Below are positions 21,322 to 32,645 of a DNA stretch of 64,000 bases, piece after piece. The position numbers and the translations under genes are program-made. Under the pieces are notes generated by a model, which was not told the DNA's origin, did not search any database, and saw only the letters and a list, made by a program, of their open reading frames with translations. This stretch comes from Microbotryum violaceum. Lineage: Eukaryota. Numbering within the stretch: the first letter of the stretch is position 1; each line of letters starts with the position of its first letter. The stretch is taken from positions 1,302,001-1,366,000 of the forward strand of contig CDLV01000005.1 of NCBI GenBank assembly GCA_001244265.2. Reading direction: 5' to 3'.

Positions 21322-24300
21322 TCAAACACTCAAGCTCCTCAACCCGCTCCCACTTTCAACGCGCAAAGTCGATCTCCCTCGATAAGCGCTTGGGAACACG
21401 TCCCCACCACCCACACCGTTCCCCGTGCCTACCTCATCACTGCCCCGCGACGTCGTCGTAGAAAGGTCCAACCCTCTTCGGGGGTCGTAGACAGTGCGTT
21501 TGGGTTTTTTGTAGGTCCAGCCCTGGTTCAAATGCAAGTGGCATAAAGGTCAGAGTCAGCCTCTGCCCCAAACTTGTTTGGGGGCTTCGATCCATAATTC
21601 ATGTAACAGCTCACTTGGAACGCCAACCCCTTCCTAGCATCCAACAACATCTGCCCATGCTCAACGTGCTTCAACAAGGGATCCCTCGTCGTATCGGGCG
21701 CGGGAATGCCCGGAGCAATCTCAGGCGGCGGGAGAGGGTTCTAGGTTTGGGGTGGACGGGAAAGGACCAGGTGAATCTTTGGGGGCTTCTTGGTATGAAG
21801 AAAAGGTGATAAGCTTACCGCATCGATGTCCTCCTCGAAATACCTCGTATCCGTTGACGAAGTCAAGCAAGGTACGAAAGGGGGTGTTTGGAGATGCAAG
21901 GTGGGAAAATCGATGCCTCGGAACCAAGGGTGAGCCTGTGGCAGAGGTCGAACTGGAATCAGCTCTCATTTGGTTTTACTTCCAGACCACAAAGGGGGTC
22001 AAAAGCCATCAAGCCCCTAGCTCACCTTGATCTCCTCCGCCCCATCCCCAGCCCCACCCGGTTCGGCCTGCCCTCTCATTGCTGCCCCGGTCGGACTCCT
22101 CAAGGACTCCATCATTGAATTCGGCCTATCTTTCGACACACTTCTCCTCGAACCCAGGCGATCTTCTCTCTCACAAATCAGACTCGTGATTAAATCCTGC
22201 GCTTCGCGGGAAATGCGAGGTGTCGATGGGAATCGGAGGTAGGAGCGCCAGTTTCGAATCTGGGGAATGGGAAGTGTTTAAAATAATCGGTGGGTCAGTC
22301 GATAAAAGGTAGAAAAATGATAATGGTTTTTTTGTTATACCTTTTGACGAGTTTGAGTCCGATTTTTGGACACGCTGTAAAGATGATGAGGCAGTCATAC
22401 TGAGCAAAGTTCTATCGACTGCATCTGCCATGAGAGCGGAGTGGAGAACTCACAAGGGAGGATAGCCATAGAGCATCTCGAACATGATGACGCCAAGTCT
22501 GAAACACTCGAAACAATCGGACATGATTCTTTAGCCAACCTCGACGCAGTTCCACCTCGGTGTTGGACTTACGACCACCAATCCGACTCAGCGCCATACC
22601 CATGACCCCTGAGCACCTCGACGGACATGTAATTGTTGGTCTAGCGGAATCGAGCGAGAAGATCAGCCCGTGTGCTGGAACACAGCACACTCTCCATCTT
22701 CCGGACTCACCCCAACGACCGAATAGGCCAACCTCCTTCGATTACGATCCCGCCAAGTCAATAAGCTGTCCTGAATGTCTTCAGCACCGTTCGACTCTTC
22801 TCTCTTAGGATCGAACAGGGGTTCGCCTCGAGGGAATTTACGGCCTTTGATGTTGGGTTCTTCGAGGTTTATACCGTGTTTGTAGAGCAAATCGCGACGT
22901 TGTTGGTCAAAGTAGGTGGCGTCGTGGGCCCAGTGGAAATCTGAGCGAGGAGGGGAGAAGAGAGGCTTAGCGTTGCGCTGGAAGGAAAAGCGCCTTATGC
23001 GTAAAAGGTGTACCGGTCGCAAGTCCAAAGTCAGAGATGGCAATGTGCCCATTGGAGTCAAACAGAAAGTTGTCGGGCTTGACCTGTATCACCGAATCGC
23101 AGATAAGCACGTCGGATACAACTTAAGCGCCGAGACGCACTCACATCACGATGGATCGCCCCAAGTACCGTATGCGTTTCTTGAATCGCGCAGATCATCT
23201 CGGCGATGTAAAACTTTGCGAACGGTTCCTTGAATGTATCTCGCTCGATCAGGAGGCTCAACAGATCTGTTGCGCAGCATTATCGAGGCGGTGAGTCGCG
23301 GAAGGCAGGCCTTTCACAACCGACATCTCTTCCTCACCTCCTCCTCCCATGTATGTCATTACGAGATACAAATGATCGACATCTTGGAACGAGTAGGCGA
23401 GTCGAACCGTCCATCTCGTCGATGTGGAAGCTGTCGCGAGCAAGTCCCGCTCGGCTCGAACGTGGCCTTCCTGACCTTTGCGGAGCATGCTACAGATGAA
23501 AATGACCACGAAAATCAGTAGGCTATTCCAAAAATTGTTCAAGTCTCGCACTGGTGTGACTTACTCTGCTTTCCTCAGCTGCTTCATGGCAAAAACCCTG
23601 ACCAAAGCCGAATACGAATACATCAGCAACCGTGAACTTATGAACTTGCCCCACCGACAGCACTCACTCGCCGGTCCCCCTCTCCTTGACCAAACTAACG
23701 ACCCCAAAAGCCCCATGTCCAATAGTCTTGAGTTTTACGAACGAATTGACCCCAACCCTCTGCCTCATCTCCCTCAAATACTCCGTCTCACTCAACTTCC
23801 AAGCCTCCCTCACGCATTGTCGTTGCTGATCATTCAAACTCAACCTCATCAACTCCTTCTCCAACAACAAGCGCCGCGTATCCCGATCACGAGGTTGTTT
23901 GAGGATGGCGTGGTATTTGGTCTCGAAGTAGACTTTGGCGGCGACGGCTTTTTCGATCGTCAACAGGGATGGGACGAATTTCGGTTCGGTAAAGGGCGGG
24001 TTGAGTGCATCGGGATCGTGGATGATTGTGTCGTCGTTTGAGGAGTCGTGTTCGTGCGAGAACGAGTGGTCAAAGTAGACTTCTTGTTGTGATGAAAGTG
24101 AGGAAGAACCAAAGTCGGGCAAGAGGGTTCGACCGCCGGGCGAGAAACGAGTGGTGCCCAGTCCCGCTCCAGTGACGTTATGTGGGGTGAGGTTCCGGTC
24201 ATGCATCTCCGGCTGCACGTCCTCTCCATCAAGAAAGGGCAAATTCTGTACCTCGAGCAAGCCCAAGAACGGTTCGTCCTCAATCGCCCCCGTCTCCGAA

Positions 24301-25992
24301 GGGACCGAAGAAGTGCTCAAAGGGAAAGGTGACATGGGACTCGAGCTAACGACTGAAGGCGGAAGACCGTTGACCACTTGGAGTCGACCTTCTGGCTGCG
24401 CATCGTTGCGAGCGGCTTGGACTTGGGCGATTCCGCGCGCTCGGGCTACCGTTCGTGTCGCCGCTTTAATGGGCTCGGCCCAGCCTCGTTCTGTCCGGAG
24501 AATGAGCACCAAGCTGCATTCAGGGAACTGATTCGATGAAATGGAACCCTGCGAGCGCACTCACGTCCAATCTTGCCTACCCCGTCCAGCTTCCATCGGC
24601 GCAGCAGGACCTCAGCCTGTTCAGCATCCGAGGCATGCACCAGATGGCTGCGTGGTAACTCAAACAGGTGTGGTCATTCAGTTGAAGCAGCACCCCTCTA
24701 CTCTTTTAAAGGAAAAAAGGAGAGACAACGCCGGAGCCAAAGACTCACGTAAATCCCTCGGGCCTCCCAATTAAACCCTTGTGAACCCCTTTGACCTTCC
24801 TCAACCCACCCCCATTGGGACCCCTTTGCATCTCCGGAGGCAGTGGGGCTTGATAATTCAGCCTCCTGTAACCACCTTGATCCCATTCCTGAATAGAACC
24901 ACCACCAAAAGCTGAAGGTGCGAGCGTCAGACCTGGTCCGACGATCCTCGAAAGGGGGTTGTAGAGCCTTGAACCAGTCGCGGCGAGCAGGTCCCAGAAC
25001 CCAGAGTGGACGAGGATGGAAGAGGAGGCTGCAAGAGGAATGTTCGAAGTTCGAGTATTGGAGAGTGGAGACTCGTATGCTCGGTGTAGGACCGTGGTCT
25101 CGTCCTTCAAGGGTGGTTTTGTAACTCGAGCGTTCGCTGTGGCAGAGACTTCGGGTCGGACTGGTATCGTCGACGGTGGTGGTGGTGATGGTGGAAGAGT
25201 AACAGCACACCCTCTGACGGTCGGGATCAAAGGCAAAGGGGGTGCATTGTTCCTCTGCGTCCTCGGAATGTTCGGCAAAGCACGATGAGCCAGCGAAGTC
25301 GGGCCTTGAGCGAGCTGTTGACCAACGAAGAAAGTTGATCGCGCCCCATCATCGATCGTACCTGACGAGAACCAATCACCCGGATCATTTGCAACAACAC
25401 GAGGTGAGGCCAAAGTGCTGATGCCGTAGACCGATTCAAGGGCTGTGACGGGTCGAGGGAAGCCGGGCGTTTCGAGAGGCGGACACGGCAGAGGGGGTCG
25501 TGTCGACATGGTTTGACCCCGCTTTGTGCTCGGCGAGGGACAGCGAACGCTAGACGAACCCACAGCGTTGCCAGCTGAAGTAGGGAGTTGAGGAAGGGGT
25601 CTCGAAGTGGTCCTGGGTTTGTGAAGACACGGATTCAAGAGATCGGGAGCAAAGATGCGGACGTTCGGGTCCGTGGTGCCGTTCACAGCCTTAGAGGCCC
25701 GGGCTCCGCTTCGATCGTCCATCGTTGCCGCCGGACTCGATCGCGGACTGGGACTAGCAGGCCCGGCACCGACCATGTTCGTTATCGTTATCATCGGCGT
25801 CCGTCGTAGTTCACTCCTGGTCAAGTTCTGCAGCTGCGTACTGACCGAACTGGATCCTGATGCGTCTCTTGTGATGTCGAGATCCATGTTCCCCAGTCGG
25901 TCGGGTTCGATCTGGGGTGCGACGTGGACCAGATTTGGATGTGGGGAAGGGACGGGGACCCGCCTCAATCGCCGATGGTTGGGAGTTTCCAT
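21322..25992 (-). CDS. AGC/NDR-family (Cbk1/Orb6-related) Ser/Thr protein kinase with long N-terminal extension, multi-exon
   Basis: NDR N-terminal regulatory region ([11 protein letters not shown]...ETEYLREMR), [48 protein letters not shown]. Start codon uncertain. Confidence 0.9.
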
Positions 25993-26254: not shown

Positions 26255-27436
26255 TTAATTTCTCAATCGAGCAACGGCGGTGTCGAGCCAGTCATCTTCT
26301 TCCTCCGGTGGAAGGCGTCCAAAAGCCTGACTGGAGACGAAGCCTGATCCTCCGGCGGATTCCGCAAAGAAGGGGTGGTCTATAAAACGCAGTCGTCAGA
26401 TTTAGACCTTTAGTGATCGACAGTGGTTCCCAGAAGCACTTACTGAGCCTCTCTTTGTCGGATAAAACCTTGATCATCGCAACCTCGGTACCCTCCCCCC
26501 CCACTTGAGCATTCATCAGAGCTCCAACCCCCGATCCCATTCCCAACATCCTGACATGCTCGGTATTCATCTTCCTGACCGTGACATCACCTTCTTCCGC
26601 ACTGGAGCTCTTGGAGAACAAGATCATACTGCCCAACACGCTGCCAACCCCAACGACGACGGGAGTGATCTTGTCATCTGGGTTGAGGCGCACGGTGCGG
26701 AAGAGGACTCGATTGCCTACTTCTGCACCGGCCATGTAAGCTGCCGAAAGCGTCATCAACGAGGGGATACGGTGAATTGCTATTGGAAGTAGAGAGGTCG
26801 AGTTTGTCGATCCGGTAGTATGAGATACGGGACCTTTGCGAAGAATTTGATTCGCTTCCTGACGGGTGACCAGGTTGGCCTGATGCATGAAGAGCAGAAC
26901 GATGAGCAGTTTTGAGCGAAATTCGTGAATCATCTGAGACTGACCATGAAGAGAGTTGCCAGCAAGTAGTGGGTATCCTCCTTGCTCTGGATCTTGAAAA
27001 AGAACCACGAGTCGCTTAGGCCGACAAACGAATCCAACACGCGACCCTTGAGTTGATCGTCGGGGATCTTGCCAATCTCCAACAAGAGCTGATCCGGTTT
27101 TCCCTGGGAAGTGATGGGTATGATGACGCGCAGACCGTAGACAATGTCCTGGCCCGGCTGAGGTGGATAGGCGATGGCTTCGATGCGAGGAAGGGATGTT
27201 GGGCGCGTGAAGCTGGGCAGATGGAGGTAGTACACGAGAAAGAGGGCGAGGAGAAGCTTCAGGTAGGTTGACGGACGGGAGATCCACGGCGGCGTCGGGT
27301 GCTTCTCAGAGGCTGGTGATGGTGCTGACTTGGCAGGGGTGGCATTGTACTCGGGCGGAGGCGAGGCAAGTGGGGGTCGTGCGGGCGGGGATGACGTAGC
27401 ACTCGGCGCATTCAAAGGCAGACCATCGCCCGCCAT
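26255..27436 (-). CDS. Hypothetical protein with an N-terminal hydrophobic segment, 3 exons
   Basis: ORF 26930-27436 (YLKLLLALFLVYYLHL) joined by GT-AG introns to the 26292-27287 frame and a last exon ending ...DDWLDTAVARLRN*. Confidence 0.6.
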
Positions 27437-27647
27437 AGTCCCGAGTCAGACCGGAAGGAAAATAGATGAGAGAGGTGGTAATGTACCGGGGGTGAAGGCC
27501 AGGGCTACAGACGGGTACGGATGGTTGCAGATCAAGCAGAGACTAAGCAGAGCCAAGCCGCGAGCAATCAGGGGCGCTTGAGGCGGTCTGCTCTGGCTCA
27601 ACCTTGTAATATGTCTGTGCTGAGCTTGCCCAAAAAGTGAGCAGCGA

Positions 27648-28959
27648 ATGGCGCTCCTTACCAGTCTCCCAGTCGAAGTCAGTCACAACATACACATCAA
27701 TTTGGATTTGAATGCTGACCTTCATACTCACCGTTCCGCTCCGCTCCGCACCGCACGACCGCATACACTCGCATCCCCACATTCATCTACGCAGCTCATT
27801 ATCGAGATCTTGTCGCGATTGGGATGGCACACCGCACACTACTCAGATAGAGAACGCCAATCGGATCTGGCTTCGGTCGCTTTGGTCAGTCGCCCCTGCA
27901 TGTTCTACTACTCGGTATCACTCGGACTCGGACAGACTCCCCTGACCACCTCACCCCTGCTCTCTTGCGCAGACTCACCCTGCTTTTCTGCATGCGGCGC
28001 AATACCTGCTCTACTCTTCGCCATCACTTACGATCCGCAACTCGGGTCGCTCAGCCTCCCTGGCCTCGACCGTCTCGTCCAAGCCCGAACTGGCCTCGCT
28101 CATCACCTCGCTCGTCGCCTTCTCCGACAAGGATGTTAGCCATCCAGCTTCGGTGACAACCATTCTCAACTCGTGCCTTAACGTATCCTCACTCTCTCTC
28201 GGCGTCGCCATATTCAACACTTCAGAAGCTTCCAACGCTCTGAAACTAGCAGCTCTACAGAAAAACCTCACCAGGTTCACGTGGGTCGGGATCGATCTGT
28301 ACCCCGTCGCCGACCTACTTGCGGCATGGACCAACCTCCGAGACTTGAACGTGACTGTCGAAACCTCGAAGGGACTTGAAATCATTGCAATACCGCGTTA
28401 CCACCTACAAATATTATCCGTCTCGGGTAGGCCAACTCACGGAATGTTGGTGCTTGGTGGGGACTACCTCGTGCACTTGCTCGGGTCAACTAGACCGGGA
28501 ACGCTCCGAGTGCTTGAACTGCATCATATCTGCTTCGAAAGTTCGGATGACACCGCCTCGACCGTGCTCAACCCATATCTCCCATTCGTACGGTCCCTGA
28601 CCATGCGCCACCTAATTCCAAACCCACTTCTGGATTGTCTCTCCGTCTGTGAGCCCCACACCTCGCTCCGTCGTCTCGTCTACTCGCCCACGGCCGGCAC
28701 CACCCTGGAAACATTTGGAAATCCCCTCCCCATCCCCAAGTCGTTGCGGTCGATCCACGTCACGGGGCGAACGACATACCTCGAGATGGGACTCATACCC
28801 ACGCTCCAAAGCCTCGGAGTAGAAGACCATGCTCTGAGGTTGATCGAATTGAGAGGCCCCTTTGCGTCCGACCCTCGATCGGCAGTATTGCGAACATTGT
28901 GCACGGTCCAAGGGATCGAGTTGCAGGTCAGGCGGGAATTTTCCGGCTTATCTGATTAA
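27648..28959 (+). CDS. F-box-like / RNI-like LRR protein
   Basis: MALLTSLPVE|LIIEILSRL (F-box start split by an intron), then LRR-like strands (LRDLNV, LQILSV, LRVLEL, VRSLTM, LRRLVY, LRSIHV). Confidence 0.65.
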
Positions 28960-29057: not shown

Positions 29058-32000
29058 TCAAATTTTGCGCTCTACAGGGCGAATCGTTACACCCGGTTTG
29101 ATCAACACCGAAGGCAGAGTCTGGTCTCGTAGGACCTGTGAAGATGAAACATATGTATCAGTTGTCATTTTTTGCCCGCTTTCCAAGCCGCTCTTGGATC
29201 AGATAATACCTACCGTACTCGTCGACCACTCGGGTCCCATCGGCGTCCTTAACTTGTGTTCGTGCTGCGCGACACTCGTATAAGGGAACGGCAGATCCTT
29301 AAGCAAATACTTGGACGCCTTCTTGTCCTTCTTCTCCGAGATGATGACGTTGGAGAACTTGGCGTCTTGACGATCCGCGGCTTTGATACCGGGGACGTGG
29401 GTGATGAATTTGCGTTGGGGTTTCTTGGATTTCTTGACGCCTTTGCCAGACCATGCGCCCTGAGTGAACGGAAGAAGCAGATCAGCCGATGATCGAGGAT
29501 CGGACATCAATAATTCAGACGAATAACTCACCCATCCAGGCAGCGTATTATCAATCTCCTTCGGTGCATCTCTCTCGATTTCCCTTCTCTTCTCCTCCTC
29601 AAAGTCAGCAACCACATCATCGCCCGCAAAAGCCTTGGCGACCAACTCCCTCTGTTGAATTGCCGTCTTGCCTTTGCCCCTTTGAGCATCAACGTCTCCT
29701 TCCTCATCCGACGAATCCACCTCCTCATCCTCCATCGTCAACCGAGCACTCGCCTCAGTCGACAATTCGATCCCAGCCTGCTTTCCCTTCGCCTGACCCT
29801 TCTTCTGCACCTTCTTGTCCGTCGAGGCCTCAGGCGCCCTCCCAACCCCCTCAATCTCGACCCTCGCATCATCCTTCTCCGCCTCCCTAGCGTCCTCAAG
29901 TCGACTCTTCCGTCGCTCGACTTTGGACGCTAACTTGGTCGCGGCGTGTTCATCTTTTCCAAAAGCGGCTTTGTTGGGTTTGCGCGAGATCTTGGAGCCG
30001 GAGGCACCTTCGGCGGCGAGGGCGAGCCACGGATTCGATTCGCTCGTCGAGGGGCCTGAAGCCGATGTGGAGGCGAGAGGAGAGGGACGGACAGATGCTA
30101 CGGACAGAGGAGCCGATAGTTTGGTCGTGTGCGTGGACGATTTGGTCGAGGATGTTGAAGGTGTGGGCTGGGCGGAAGAAGTCTGGGTGGAGGTCAAAGC
30201 CTTTTTAGCTCCTGCAAAAAGCCAAGCCTCAATTCACTACCTGAAAAACTCACCTGAGCTAACCCCGAAGGTCCGAAGACCATTCGCCCTGTATTACCCT
30301 GAACCTGCTGCGACTGCGCGCCCGGTTCCTCGTCATCAGAATCGTCCTCATCATCATCTCGTAGTGCACCACCCATCTCATCCATCCTCTCGAGTCGGGT
30401 TCGAAGTTCGTCCGTCGATTGCTGCACCTTGCGATCCTCTCGAGCGATGGCGTCCCTCATGAACTTCATGTTGAGCACACCCTTGAGCTGCGGCCCATTC
30501 TCGGCCTTGTCCTTCTCGCGCGCTTCGAGACTGGCAAGTTCGTCGAAGGCTCGTCGTCGGATCTTGTCGACACCGCCTTCAGTGTCGTTCTCATCTTCCG
30601 AGTCGTCCGAGTCGTCGTCGTCTGAAGATTCATCGCGATCGTCATCGCCGCGGCCTTCGATTCTCCTTGTCAAGGCCTCCTTGCGCGCTACCATCTCCCT
30701 CACGGCCGTGTTCCTCTCCTCATCCAGTCCCTCCAGCCCTCCAATATTCGTCCGACTCCACCTCCCACCCTTGGACGAATGCTTAAGCGTCATCCTCTCC
30801 TTAGCCCGTAACACCTCCCTCCTCGCCTGTTCATCTTCAGCCCTGGACCCACCGTCCAACAAGTCCAACTCTTTCAACTCGTCCAAACTCAACCCATCCA
30901 GACCTTCCTTCCCACCCTTGGCCAAAGCCTTCCTATGAATTCTCCTAAACACCTTGGACTTGATCTTGGCGACCCTCTTGGCCTTCCTCTCCGCACGAAA
31001 CATCAAATCCCTCTGAGTCCTCAGCTCGGTCTGTCGCTTGACCAAATCTTCCGGATCCAACGTCTTCAATGCTTGTTGTTCAGCCTTCTTCAAATCCGAT
31101 CCCGTCATCTGTCCAGCAGCAAGCAAGCTCTGGATTGAAGCCTCGAGTTGGTTCGATGGCTCAAAATTGGCGGCCCATTCATTCGAGTTGGCGTCCCTTT
31201 GCGCATCCCCCGTAGGCGCCATGAGAGGGAGGGTCAAGCGTTCATGACGAGCGCCTTCGACGCCGAGGCCAGACACGCCCTTCATGCGTCGGACGGTCTC
31301 GTTCCACTTGTCCGTCTCTTCCTTGGTCTTGTCAAAAGCAGCTTCACGATCGATCTTGTCTTGGAGTCGGGCGGGAAGAGGAGCTGCAAGAGGTCCGGGA
31401 GCTTTGAGATGAGAGTTGGAGGAGGAGGTCGCGCCTGTCGACGCGGTGGCTTTGAGAGTTTTGCGGAGTGCGACGAGCTTTGGGTTCTTGGATTCAGCGA
31501 ACGAGGCGAGCAAGTCGTCGAGTTGGATTTTGCCTGTGTGCATGGTGAGTTTGATGAGGTCATGTTCGGGATTCATGACATAAAGTAACGACTCACCGTC
31601 GTTGGCTCCATCCTTTGCACCGACAGCCACAAATTCGCCCTCGGGATAGGCTTCAGCTTTCTCCTTGAGCACGACCCTCTTCTTCTTCTTCCCACTCGCA
31701 TCCGGCTCCCCACCTTCCAAATCATCATTCTTTCGCTTTTTGCCCGCTTCGAGTCCCTGGACGAATGCATCCAGCTTGTCGATCGCGCCTTCGTATTCCG
31801 AGTCATTGTCGTCAGAGTCGACCGAGCTCATGTCCTCGTCCTCATCGTTGTTTTCGCTGTCCTCATCGGAGGCGTCCGAGTCATAGAGACTCATGTCAAG
31901 CATATGAGTAGCGTCATAGTAGGCCGCATCGTCATCAGAATCGGCTTGCGAGTCGTCCTGGTCTTCGTCGAGGTTGATCTCGAGCGGTTTCGACTTTGAA

Positions 32001-32645
32001 GCCGAGGTGCCTTTCTTGCCCTATCGCACCGAAAGACAAAATGTTAGCCCCTCAGTGAGCATAGTATCGCCTGATCACTCAAAAACACACCTTCGTCGGA
32101 GGAGCCTCATCTATCTCAATCTCGGACTCTGTTCCCGCATCGTCCGAGTTGATGTCCTCGTCATCATCGCCACCCTCCTCATCCCCGCCCTGCTCCTCAT
32201 CCGAATCCAAGCCCATCTTCAACCCTTTGGGTTTGAACCCCGTAAAATCGACTGGTTCGTCCCCATTGAACATGGCCTCCAGATCGTCCCTATCCTGAGC
32301 ATCCATACCTTCCTCATCCTCATCGTCGTCATCGTCCCTGCGCCTTCCCTTCCCCTTCCCAACATTGGCCCTAGCGAGAGGATCTACATCTCCTCTGGCC
32401 TTCTTCTTCCCCGGTTCAAAAGAATATACGTTCAATCCCGTGCTTGTGGAAGTCCCATCGGCTTGGGACAGGACCTTGGTCTGACGTTTCTTGCTCATCG
32501 GTTTCGATTTGGTCTTGCTTTTGGAGGACTTGGTCGAGCTCGAACCACCACCACCACCACCACCACCACCACCACCACCGCCAGTCGCCGTATCACCCTG
32601 TGAGGCATGAGGTGCCGAACGTGGTTGTCGACCTGTCCTAGCCAT
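29058..32645 (-). CDS. UTP14: U3 snoRNA-associated protein Utp14, multi-exon
   Basis: ERKAKRVAKIKSKVFRRIHRK, RAKERMTLKH, FAGDDVVADFEEEK, TLPGW|GAWSG, LPFPYTS...PMGPEW. Confidence 0.95.
32544..32580. repeat. (CCA)n repeat encoding poly-Gly near the Utp14 N-terminus
   Basis: accaccaccacc array; GGGGGGGGGGGGG in the minus-strand ORF. Confidence 0.9.

Follow-up and report, generated by a model that had tools for sequence, protein, structure and literature searches.

The Microbotryum violaceum window analysed here (64,000 nt of contig CDLV01000005.1) carries on its minus strand a gene for an NDR/LATS-type kinase, the N-terminal part of which contains a CRIB motif that is only assembled upon removal of intron 1. 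Judged from sequence comparison, this motif is a divergent CRIB homologue and not a member of PF00786, and the kinase represents an ancient pan-fungal subfamily, the third of the fungal NDR/LATS kinases and a little-studied one, rather than a one-off fusion. Both the motif and the kinase family are known; their combination was found nowhere described in the literature searched. We consider it likely that the CRIB is inherited and functional, and that Cdc42/Rac recruits this Mob-dependent NDR kinase to polar sites.

Gene structure and splicing of the motif

The features of the gene are given below (positions in the window).

21322..25992, minus strand: coding sequence of the NDR/LATS-type kinase, 15 exons, 14 GT-AG introns, 1193 aa
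25992, minus strand: first in-frame ATG of the coding sequence; public models of relatives begin at this ATG or at Met36
24749..25992, minus strand: exon 1, long Pro/Ser-rich disordered N-terminus with the first half of the CRIB at its end
24772..24807, minus strand: basic patch preceding the CRIB, 4 K/R in 12 residues
24648..24748, minus strand: intron 1, 101 nt, from the donor GTGAGT (24748) to the acceptor ...CACGCAG (last base 24648)
24629..24771, minus strand: CRIB core I408-G-R-P-E-G-F-T/H416-L-V-H419-A-S, with intron 1 inside
24404..24628, minus strand: family-specific two-helix extension after the CRIB, DAEQAE.LL.RW..DG.GK...W..PIK, with invariant columns in the alignment
24564-24491, minus strand: intron within the helical extension, cutting the conserved helical element behind the CRIB
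23742..23960, minus strand: NDR/LATS N-terminal regulatory (Mob-binding) region, NTR, from alignment to the NTRs of Cbk1, NDR2, and LATS1
21819..23741, minus strand: AGC kinase domain, with G-loop at 23720, VAIK Lys at 23590, HRD at 23153, and DFG at 23032
22725, minus strand: activation segment YSVVGTNNY, preceded by a long VII-VIII insertion
21510..21626, minus strand: hydrophobic motif LAFQ/GWTY, broken by intron 21614-21523

Intron 1 splits the Thr codon ahead of His416 (GGA TTT AC + C CAT CTG), and the spliced motif is read in the same frame as the 5' ORF and the kinase. The first-pass annotation had proposed exactly this splice and the resulting CRIB-like peptide, and the joint 24647/24749, at which 101 bases (CT..AC) are skipped, was indeed observed in contigs of three out of four runs (X2, X4, and X10, from two studies), with a likeness of 90-95% for X2 and X4 and of 99% or more for X10. 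Run X1 gave no coverage of the joint, and some of its contigs keep introns. None of the runs is recorded as RNA, but the contigs that lack the introns are cDNA-like. Over the whole gene, 13 of the 14 introns are present as contig joints and the remaining one is implied by a 32-letter micro-exon. An upstream GC-AG intron (26053-25993), which would add Met-Thr, was rejected since the X10 contig is unspliced across it.

That the motif is a splice artefact or a chance match, or that the 5' ORF constitutes a gene of its own, is extremely improbable. The motif is absent from the six unspliced frames of the 64-kb window (0 matches) and intron 1 lacks a textbook branch point near the acceptor, but against this stand the exact joint in the three runs, one single X10 contig that spans the 5' ORF together with the kinase exons, and orthologs across the fungi that bear the same motif. 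Of the 1801 GT-AG splices that are possible across the gene region, one alone creates the motif, namely the intron 24748-24648, and in shuffles of the 699-aa pre-kinase region the motif arose in 10 out of 200,000 cases (a rate of 5e-5). Furthermore, motif and kinase are situated within one protein in the NCBI models of three Microbotryum species; the closest named protein, from Microbotryum silenes-dioicae, is 98% identical and has the identical splice. The motif is invisible in the ORF track, as had been remarked, but it was already contained in public gene models, and in some orthologs automatic annotation marks it.

Concerning the neighbourhood, a Utp14 gene lies at 29199-32020 (minus strand), and the ORFs at 26292-27445 (minus strand) and 27946-28959 (plus strand) gave no Pfam match. 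A spliced transcript starts at approximately 26379-26444, just upstream of the kinase gene.

Fit to the CRIB consensus and homology of the motif

The CRIB core consensus is I-S-x-P-x(2-4)-F-x-H-x-x-H-V-G according to the accessible part of PMC8847673. The Microbotryum copy matches five of the eight consensus residues exactly (I, P, F, H, and H), with consensus spacing, and departs from it by S>G, V>A, and G>S. The fit with Gly in place of Ser, as first noted, holds, but the copy departs more strongly at its end, where A-S replaces V-G, two positions which were absent from the consensus used at that time. Gly at the second position is common in the family (42 of 125 strict-motif proteins, with Ser in 83). 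Both His residues, a lack of conservation of which had been named as a refuting condition, are invariant in 24 out of 24 and in 83 out of 83 aligned sequences, the 83 full-length proteins having been picked as motif-bearing, so that invariance is judged within that choice. Pro and Phe are kept in at least 90% of the aligned family proteins. In the motif profile A1, built from 24 basidiomycete segments, the invariant columns are H22, H25, A26, S27, D28, L36, R38, W39, G45, and W52. In Microbotryum the lead-in RISxDM (family consensus KKRISxDM) has degenerated; the basic patch is retained.

The scan of the spliced protein with the PBD profile, suggested earlier as a check, turned out negative: it stays below the PF00786 gathering cut-off of 21.3, and neither the segment nor the full-length Microbotryum kinase gave a PBD match at E<=10. 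Likewise, Pfam detected PBD in none of 12 full-length basidiomycete proteins and in none of the single exons of the kinase gene. Half of the A1 members (12 of 24) match Pfam PBD weakly (best E 0.01), and one matches the ACK-type GTPase_binding family. Five chytrid orthologs (Entophlyctis, two Batrachochytrium, Phlyctochytrium, and Dinochytrium) exceed the PBD cut-off at 25-36 bits, and these same five possess two to three tandem CRIBs. In case of the Mortierella, Rhizophagus, and Pneumocystis orthologs the motif reads ISxPxxFxHxxH. A search of 1.84 billion proteins with profile A1 retrieved unrelated multi-CRIB proteins, of which all 11 scanned exceed the PBD cut-off. Within the Microbotryum genome the motif is closest to the WASP-type CRIB, with an HHalign probability of 93% (E 3e-7), compared to 67% for the PAK CRIB. 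Matches of A1 to solved CRIBs are non-significant (WASP 1cee E 0.31, N-WASP 0.34, PAK6 1.0), and in the PDB search with the motif artificial alphaRep repeats, which are artefacts, outrank the solved CRIBs. The assignment to the CRIBs rests on the family as a whole, i.e., on the weak PBD matches, the chytrid orthologs above the cut-off, the profile retrievals, and the alignment with the WASP-type CRIB.

Six of the proteins retrieved with A1 (P0160, P0165, P0169, P0171, P0186, and P0198) are 500-1000 aa long and contain four to seven tandem CRIB-like stretches, and no further Pfam domain was found in them above its cut-off. A second short conserved element of 11 residues is situated at 24990-25017 (minus strand), approximately 80 residues N-terminal of the CRIB. 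Its strict pattern occurs in 12 of 165 family proteins, a looser form, HxGFxDLL, appears in the A4 consensus, and the predicted structure shows a low-confidence helix at this place. The PAK (Cla4-type) CRIB of the genome was found in equal-scoring copies at G000:C1:1635592 and C2:1638997, as was one small GTPase at C1:3341k and C2:3932k; two homologous chromosomes assembled apart would fit these duplicates.

Kinase domain and related kinases

The best PDB matches of the kinase are Cbk1 (3e-96), STK38/NDR1 (4.5e-82), and MRCK (1e-63). With Cbk1, Cot-1, Orb6, and Ukc1 it has in common the NTR, the VII-VIII insertion, the activation-segment Ser, and the hydrophobic motif; this group is also the nearest solved relative. 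The insertion is long, with DFG at residue 837 and YSVVGTNNY at 915, the latter aligning with AYSTVGT of Cbk1. The hydrophobic motif F-x-x-[YFW]-T-[YF] is present as FQGWTY once the intron is removed as in X10, and orthologs are alike in this respect. For the family NTR profile, E-values of 1.5e-13 (Cbk1), 1.8e-12 (LATS1), 6.7e-10 (NDR2), and 3e-4 (Dbf2) were obtained. Due to the retention of this Mob-binding region, as seen in sequence comparison, the CRIB would add to Mob control and not replace it. The genome has two Mob loci for three NDR kinases. At the APE motif (22640-22620, minus strand) members from the Microbotryomycetes show SVE/AVE (YMSVEVL), compared to YMAPEVL in most of the family.

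Separate genes for Cbk1 (G000:C17:581k) and Dbf2 exist in the genome, to which the kinase is 49% (Cbk1, over the kinase region) and 37% (Dbf2) identical. As the first-pass annotation had stated for canonical NDR kinases, no CRIB occurs at these two loci in any frame or trial splice. The CRIB-free Cbk1 further differs from the clade by GTPDY in place of GTNNY. An identification as the Cbk1/Orb6/Cot-1 of this genome was rejected because of the separate Cbk1 gene and the clade split (UFBoot 100), and one as Dbf2/Sid2 because of the separate Dbf2 gene, the 37% identity, and the position of Dbf2 outside the clade.

MRCK/Genghis khan is, like the clade, a CRIB-bearing AGC kinase of the NDR/DMPK neighbourhood. 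In MRCK, which is absent from yeast, the kinase is N-terminal and C1-PH-CNH-CRIB are C-terminal (PMC8847673, accessible part), whereas the clade has an NTR and bears its CRIB in the N-terminal part; the MRCK match also scores far below that of Cbk1. MRCK/DMPK/ROCK was dismissed as an identity of the kinase, since its kinase domain is C-terminal and Pfam domains of the coiled-coil and C1-PH-CNH types are absent. We infer that the CRIB was acquired independently in MRCK and in the fungal NDR clade. PAK/Ste20/Cla4 and WASP resemble the clade in that an N-terminal CRIB is followed by a conserved helical element. Compared to PAK, the kinase is of the AGC/NDR and not of the STE type, and no similarity was detected past the CRIB core.

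Occurrence in the fungi

The family was collected by searches starting from the Microbotryum protein and from a chytrid ortholog. Members were found in the Pucciniomycotina, Ustilaginomycotina, Agaricomycotina (with Kwoniella and Naganishia), and Pneumocystis, and furthermore in the Glomeromycota, Mortierellomycota, Blastocladiomycota, Chytridiomycota, Neocallimastigomycota, and Gonapodya. Of the 165 family proteins above 550 aa, which were not selected for the motif, 125 carry the strict form ahead of the G-loop; among the 40 proteins without it are many seemingly 5'-truncated models. In a subset of 94 proteins, GTNNY is present in 84 and a CRIB-like pattern before the G-loop in 72. Also among the 40 are rust orthologs, which have lost the motif Phe and retained both His residues, and some chytrids with Leu or Val in place of the Phe. 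Members from the Ustilaginomycotina have an insertion of two residues, still within the consensus spacing P-x2-4-F (PMC8847673, accessible part). In the Neocallimastigomycota and Gonapodya models of the family no motif was found.

Trees were calculated from 30 sequences and 405 columns, comprising 26 of the 165 family proteins and four outgroups only (the genome's own Cbk1 and Dbf2, a plant NDR, and Rim15), none of these an ascomycete, animal, or LATS sequence. The 26 members form one clade (FastTree 0.99, UFBoot 100), which bears out the earlier proposal of an NDR paralogue distinct from Cbk1 and Dbf2. Branching within the clade roughly parallels the fungal phyla. Pezizomycotina, Saccharomycotina, and Mucorales do not occur among the best 120 matches listed, and the kinase was likely lost from these groups. 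For Cryptococcus neoformans H99 the kinome table, in the accessible part of PMC5052723, labels only CBK1 and DBF20 as NDR, plus RIM15 by KOG; given the Kwoniella ortholog, a loss of the CRIB-NDR kinase from C. neoformans is possible.

Relation to LATS/Warts

With the family NTR profile LATS1 reached 50.8 bits, NDR2 42.6, an NTR fragment of Cbk1 41.1, and Dbf2 24.4. Where the aligned spans are comparable, LATS1 is thus 8-10 bits ahead of NDR2 and of the Cbk1 fragment; full-length Cbk1, aligned across more residues, reaches 54.3. If the Microbotryum NTR alone is used instead of the profile, NDR2 and Cbk1 stand above LATS1 by 2-4 bits. A long N-terminus is shared by LATS1/2/Warts and the clade. 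The Asn (in GTPNY) and the Trp (in F.W.HD) are likewise found in LATS, which is not known to carry a CRIB. In the trees, the genome's own Cbk1 and the plant NDR group together, apart from the clade (UFBoot 88), which fits an old split as judged on these sequences, without naming the sister group of the clade. One Warts each is counted for Spizellomyces and U. maydis in the accessible part of PMC7035326. It is tempting to speculate that the clade represents the fungal LATS/Warts, i.e., the true Hippo effector kinase, which would have persisted from chytrids to basidiomycetes and Pneumocystis and disappeared from the common yeast and mould model species, and that its N-terminal CRIB is a switch through which Cdc42/Rac acts on it directly. 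We hold this idea to be rather unlikely as it stands. If true, it would change which fungal kinase is to be compared with animal Hippo signalling.

Structure models

A complex model of the CRIB segment with Cdc42-GTP-Mg reached an ipSAE of 0.88, compared to 0.01 for the best control, whereby peptides and disordered chains lie outside the calibration of the scoring tool. Among microbial pairs, 51 of 78 solved ones and 2 of 108 mismatches attain the mark applied; for eukaryotic pairs the counts are 39 of 65 and 2 of 126, respectively. Runs of the model have at least 75% of the contacts in common, and the partner pLDDT is at least 62. In the model, the CRIB Ile is placed on Cdc42 residues 45-46/170-174, and Pro and Phe on 41-44. 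The modelled Cdc42 is a stand-in (P0281), which is the same as the genome's own protein over residues 41-101 and has Val for Cys at the interface position 174. Since similar complexes have already been solved, the score conveys a predicted likeness to solved CRIB complexes only and does not separate Cdc42 from Rac1. The genome's own Cdc42 (G000:C5:585k, L037:1040-1123) has Cys174, and Val is found in most fungal Cdc42 matches; residue 174 contacts the CRIB Ile in the complex model.

In the AlphaFold2 model the N-terminus is mostly below pLDDT 50 and the CRIB core is disordered. The helices after the CRIB (residues 388-401 and 409-437 of P0001) have a pLDDT of 78-92 in the full-length model, where they are the sole ordered island among approximately 570 N-terminal residues, and the two-helix module folded alone reaches 75-84. 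Comparing full-length model and isolated module, pLDDT gave no sign that the module docks on the kinase. A fold search with the full model matched residues 599-1110 only, with AGC kinases tied at Z 36-38, and the ESM Atlas returned only kinase clusters for the Rhizophagus ortholog.

Proposed mechanism and alternatives

Mob binding and upstream phosphorylation are established behaviour of NDR kinases. In the model we favour, GTP-loaded Cdc42 and/or Rac1 would bind the CRIB by beta-strand addition to switch I/beta2, with the CRIB Ile predicted to enter the alpha5 pocket and the two His residues to lie at the effector loop of the GTPase. The bound GTPase would direct the kinase towards polar growth sites. 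As expected from the NDR family, Mob would bind the NTR and a Ste20-like kinase would phosphorylate the hydrophobic-motif Thr; the activation-segment Ser may be autophosphorylated. The active kinase, working in parallel with Cbk1, would then affect hyphal growth and the integrity of the cell wall. As to the role of the GTPase, we lean clearly towards recruitment and leave a substantial minor share to a release of autoinhibition via the helical extension.

An ancestral CRIB may instead have been repurposed in the Basidiomycota (or in Microbotryum and the rusts), with GTPase binding weakened or lost and the HxxH-ASD two-helix module serving another partner or an intramolecular role. Conservation in A1 is indeed highest at H-x-x-H-A-S-D and the helices, above I-S/G-x-P, the V-G is substituted throughout, and the helices fold confidently without a GTPase; the rusts that dispense with Phe yet keep both His, and the lead-in gone in Microbotryum, point in the same direction. 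We nevertheless judge this unlikely, given Pro and Phe in at least nine tenths of the aligned proteins, the retained basic patch, an insertion in the Ustilaginomycotina that respects the consensus spacing, and a Cdc42 model that passes with the exact Microbotryum sequence.

Somewhat less improbable, but still doubtful, is a PAK-like switch, in which CRIB and helices would autoinhibit the kinase or its NTR and the GTPase would be a direct activator; it overlaps with recruitment and differs in mechanism. In PAK and WASP the inhibitory switch is a helical element directly after the CRIB, and such an element is conserved at this position from chytrids to basidiomycetes, forming the lone ordered island mentioned above. 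Against the switch stand the pLDDT of the module, which is only slightly higher in the full-length model than alone and gives no sign of docking, and a linker to the NTR of 150-300 disordered residues, which is variable in length. Recruitment of a Mob-dependent kinase by an inherited CRIB thus remains the reading we prefer.

Relation to U. maydis Ukc2 and published annotation

The U. maydis protein um02741 (ukc2, Cbr1) is a second Cbk1-like NDR kinase, 45% identical to Ukc1. The gene is induced 4-fold in filaments, and its deletion results in fewer filaments, halved appressoria, and Congo-red sensitivity; it is also needed for full tumour formation, and its upstream pathway was left open by the authors (all from the accessible part of PMC4102580). 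In a teaching screen, no phenotype was seen for an analogue-sensitive allele of um02741 (PMC6268829, Table 2); the accessible part of this paper gives the gatekeepers as M798 for um02741 and M398 for Ukc1. In ten clade members of the Ustilaginaceae the gatekeeper is located at 760-811, a range that includes M798. Judged indirectly, from where the gatekeeper lies, how similar the kinase is to Cbk1, and how many paralogues there are, the kinase is probably the ortholog of Ukc2/Cbr1.

The word CRIB does not occur in the main texts of PMC4102580 and PMC6268829, and the accessible parts of PMC7761452 and PMC13712771 make no mention of it. Reviews, as far as represented by the accessible part of PMC8847673, list only PAK, MRCK, MLK, and ACK as CRIB-bearing kinases. 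The literature searched, which mostly excludes subscription papers and theses, contained no paper in which an NDR/LATS kinase bears a CRIB, so that a printed mention is possible. Among database entries, UniRef labels a Kwoniella family fragment as CRIB domain-containing protein, and 5 of the best 120 family matches listed come with a precomputed PF00786 assignment. The known action of fungal NDR kinases on Cdc42 is an indirect one, by Orb6 via Gef1.

The arrangement, which is conserved from chytrids to mushrooms and smuts, suggests that the polarity switches Cdc42/Rac are linked directly to the NDR kinase family. If this is true, Cdc42/Rac gain an effector kinase not seen in the yeast models, and the CRIB gives a direct test of the pathway to which U. 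maydis Ukc2 belongs.
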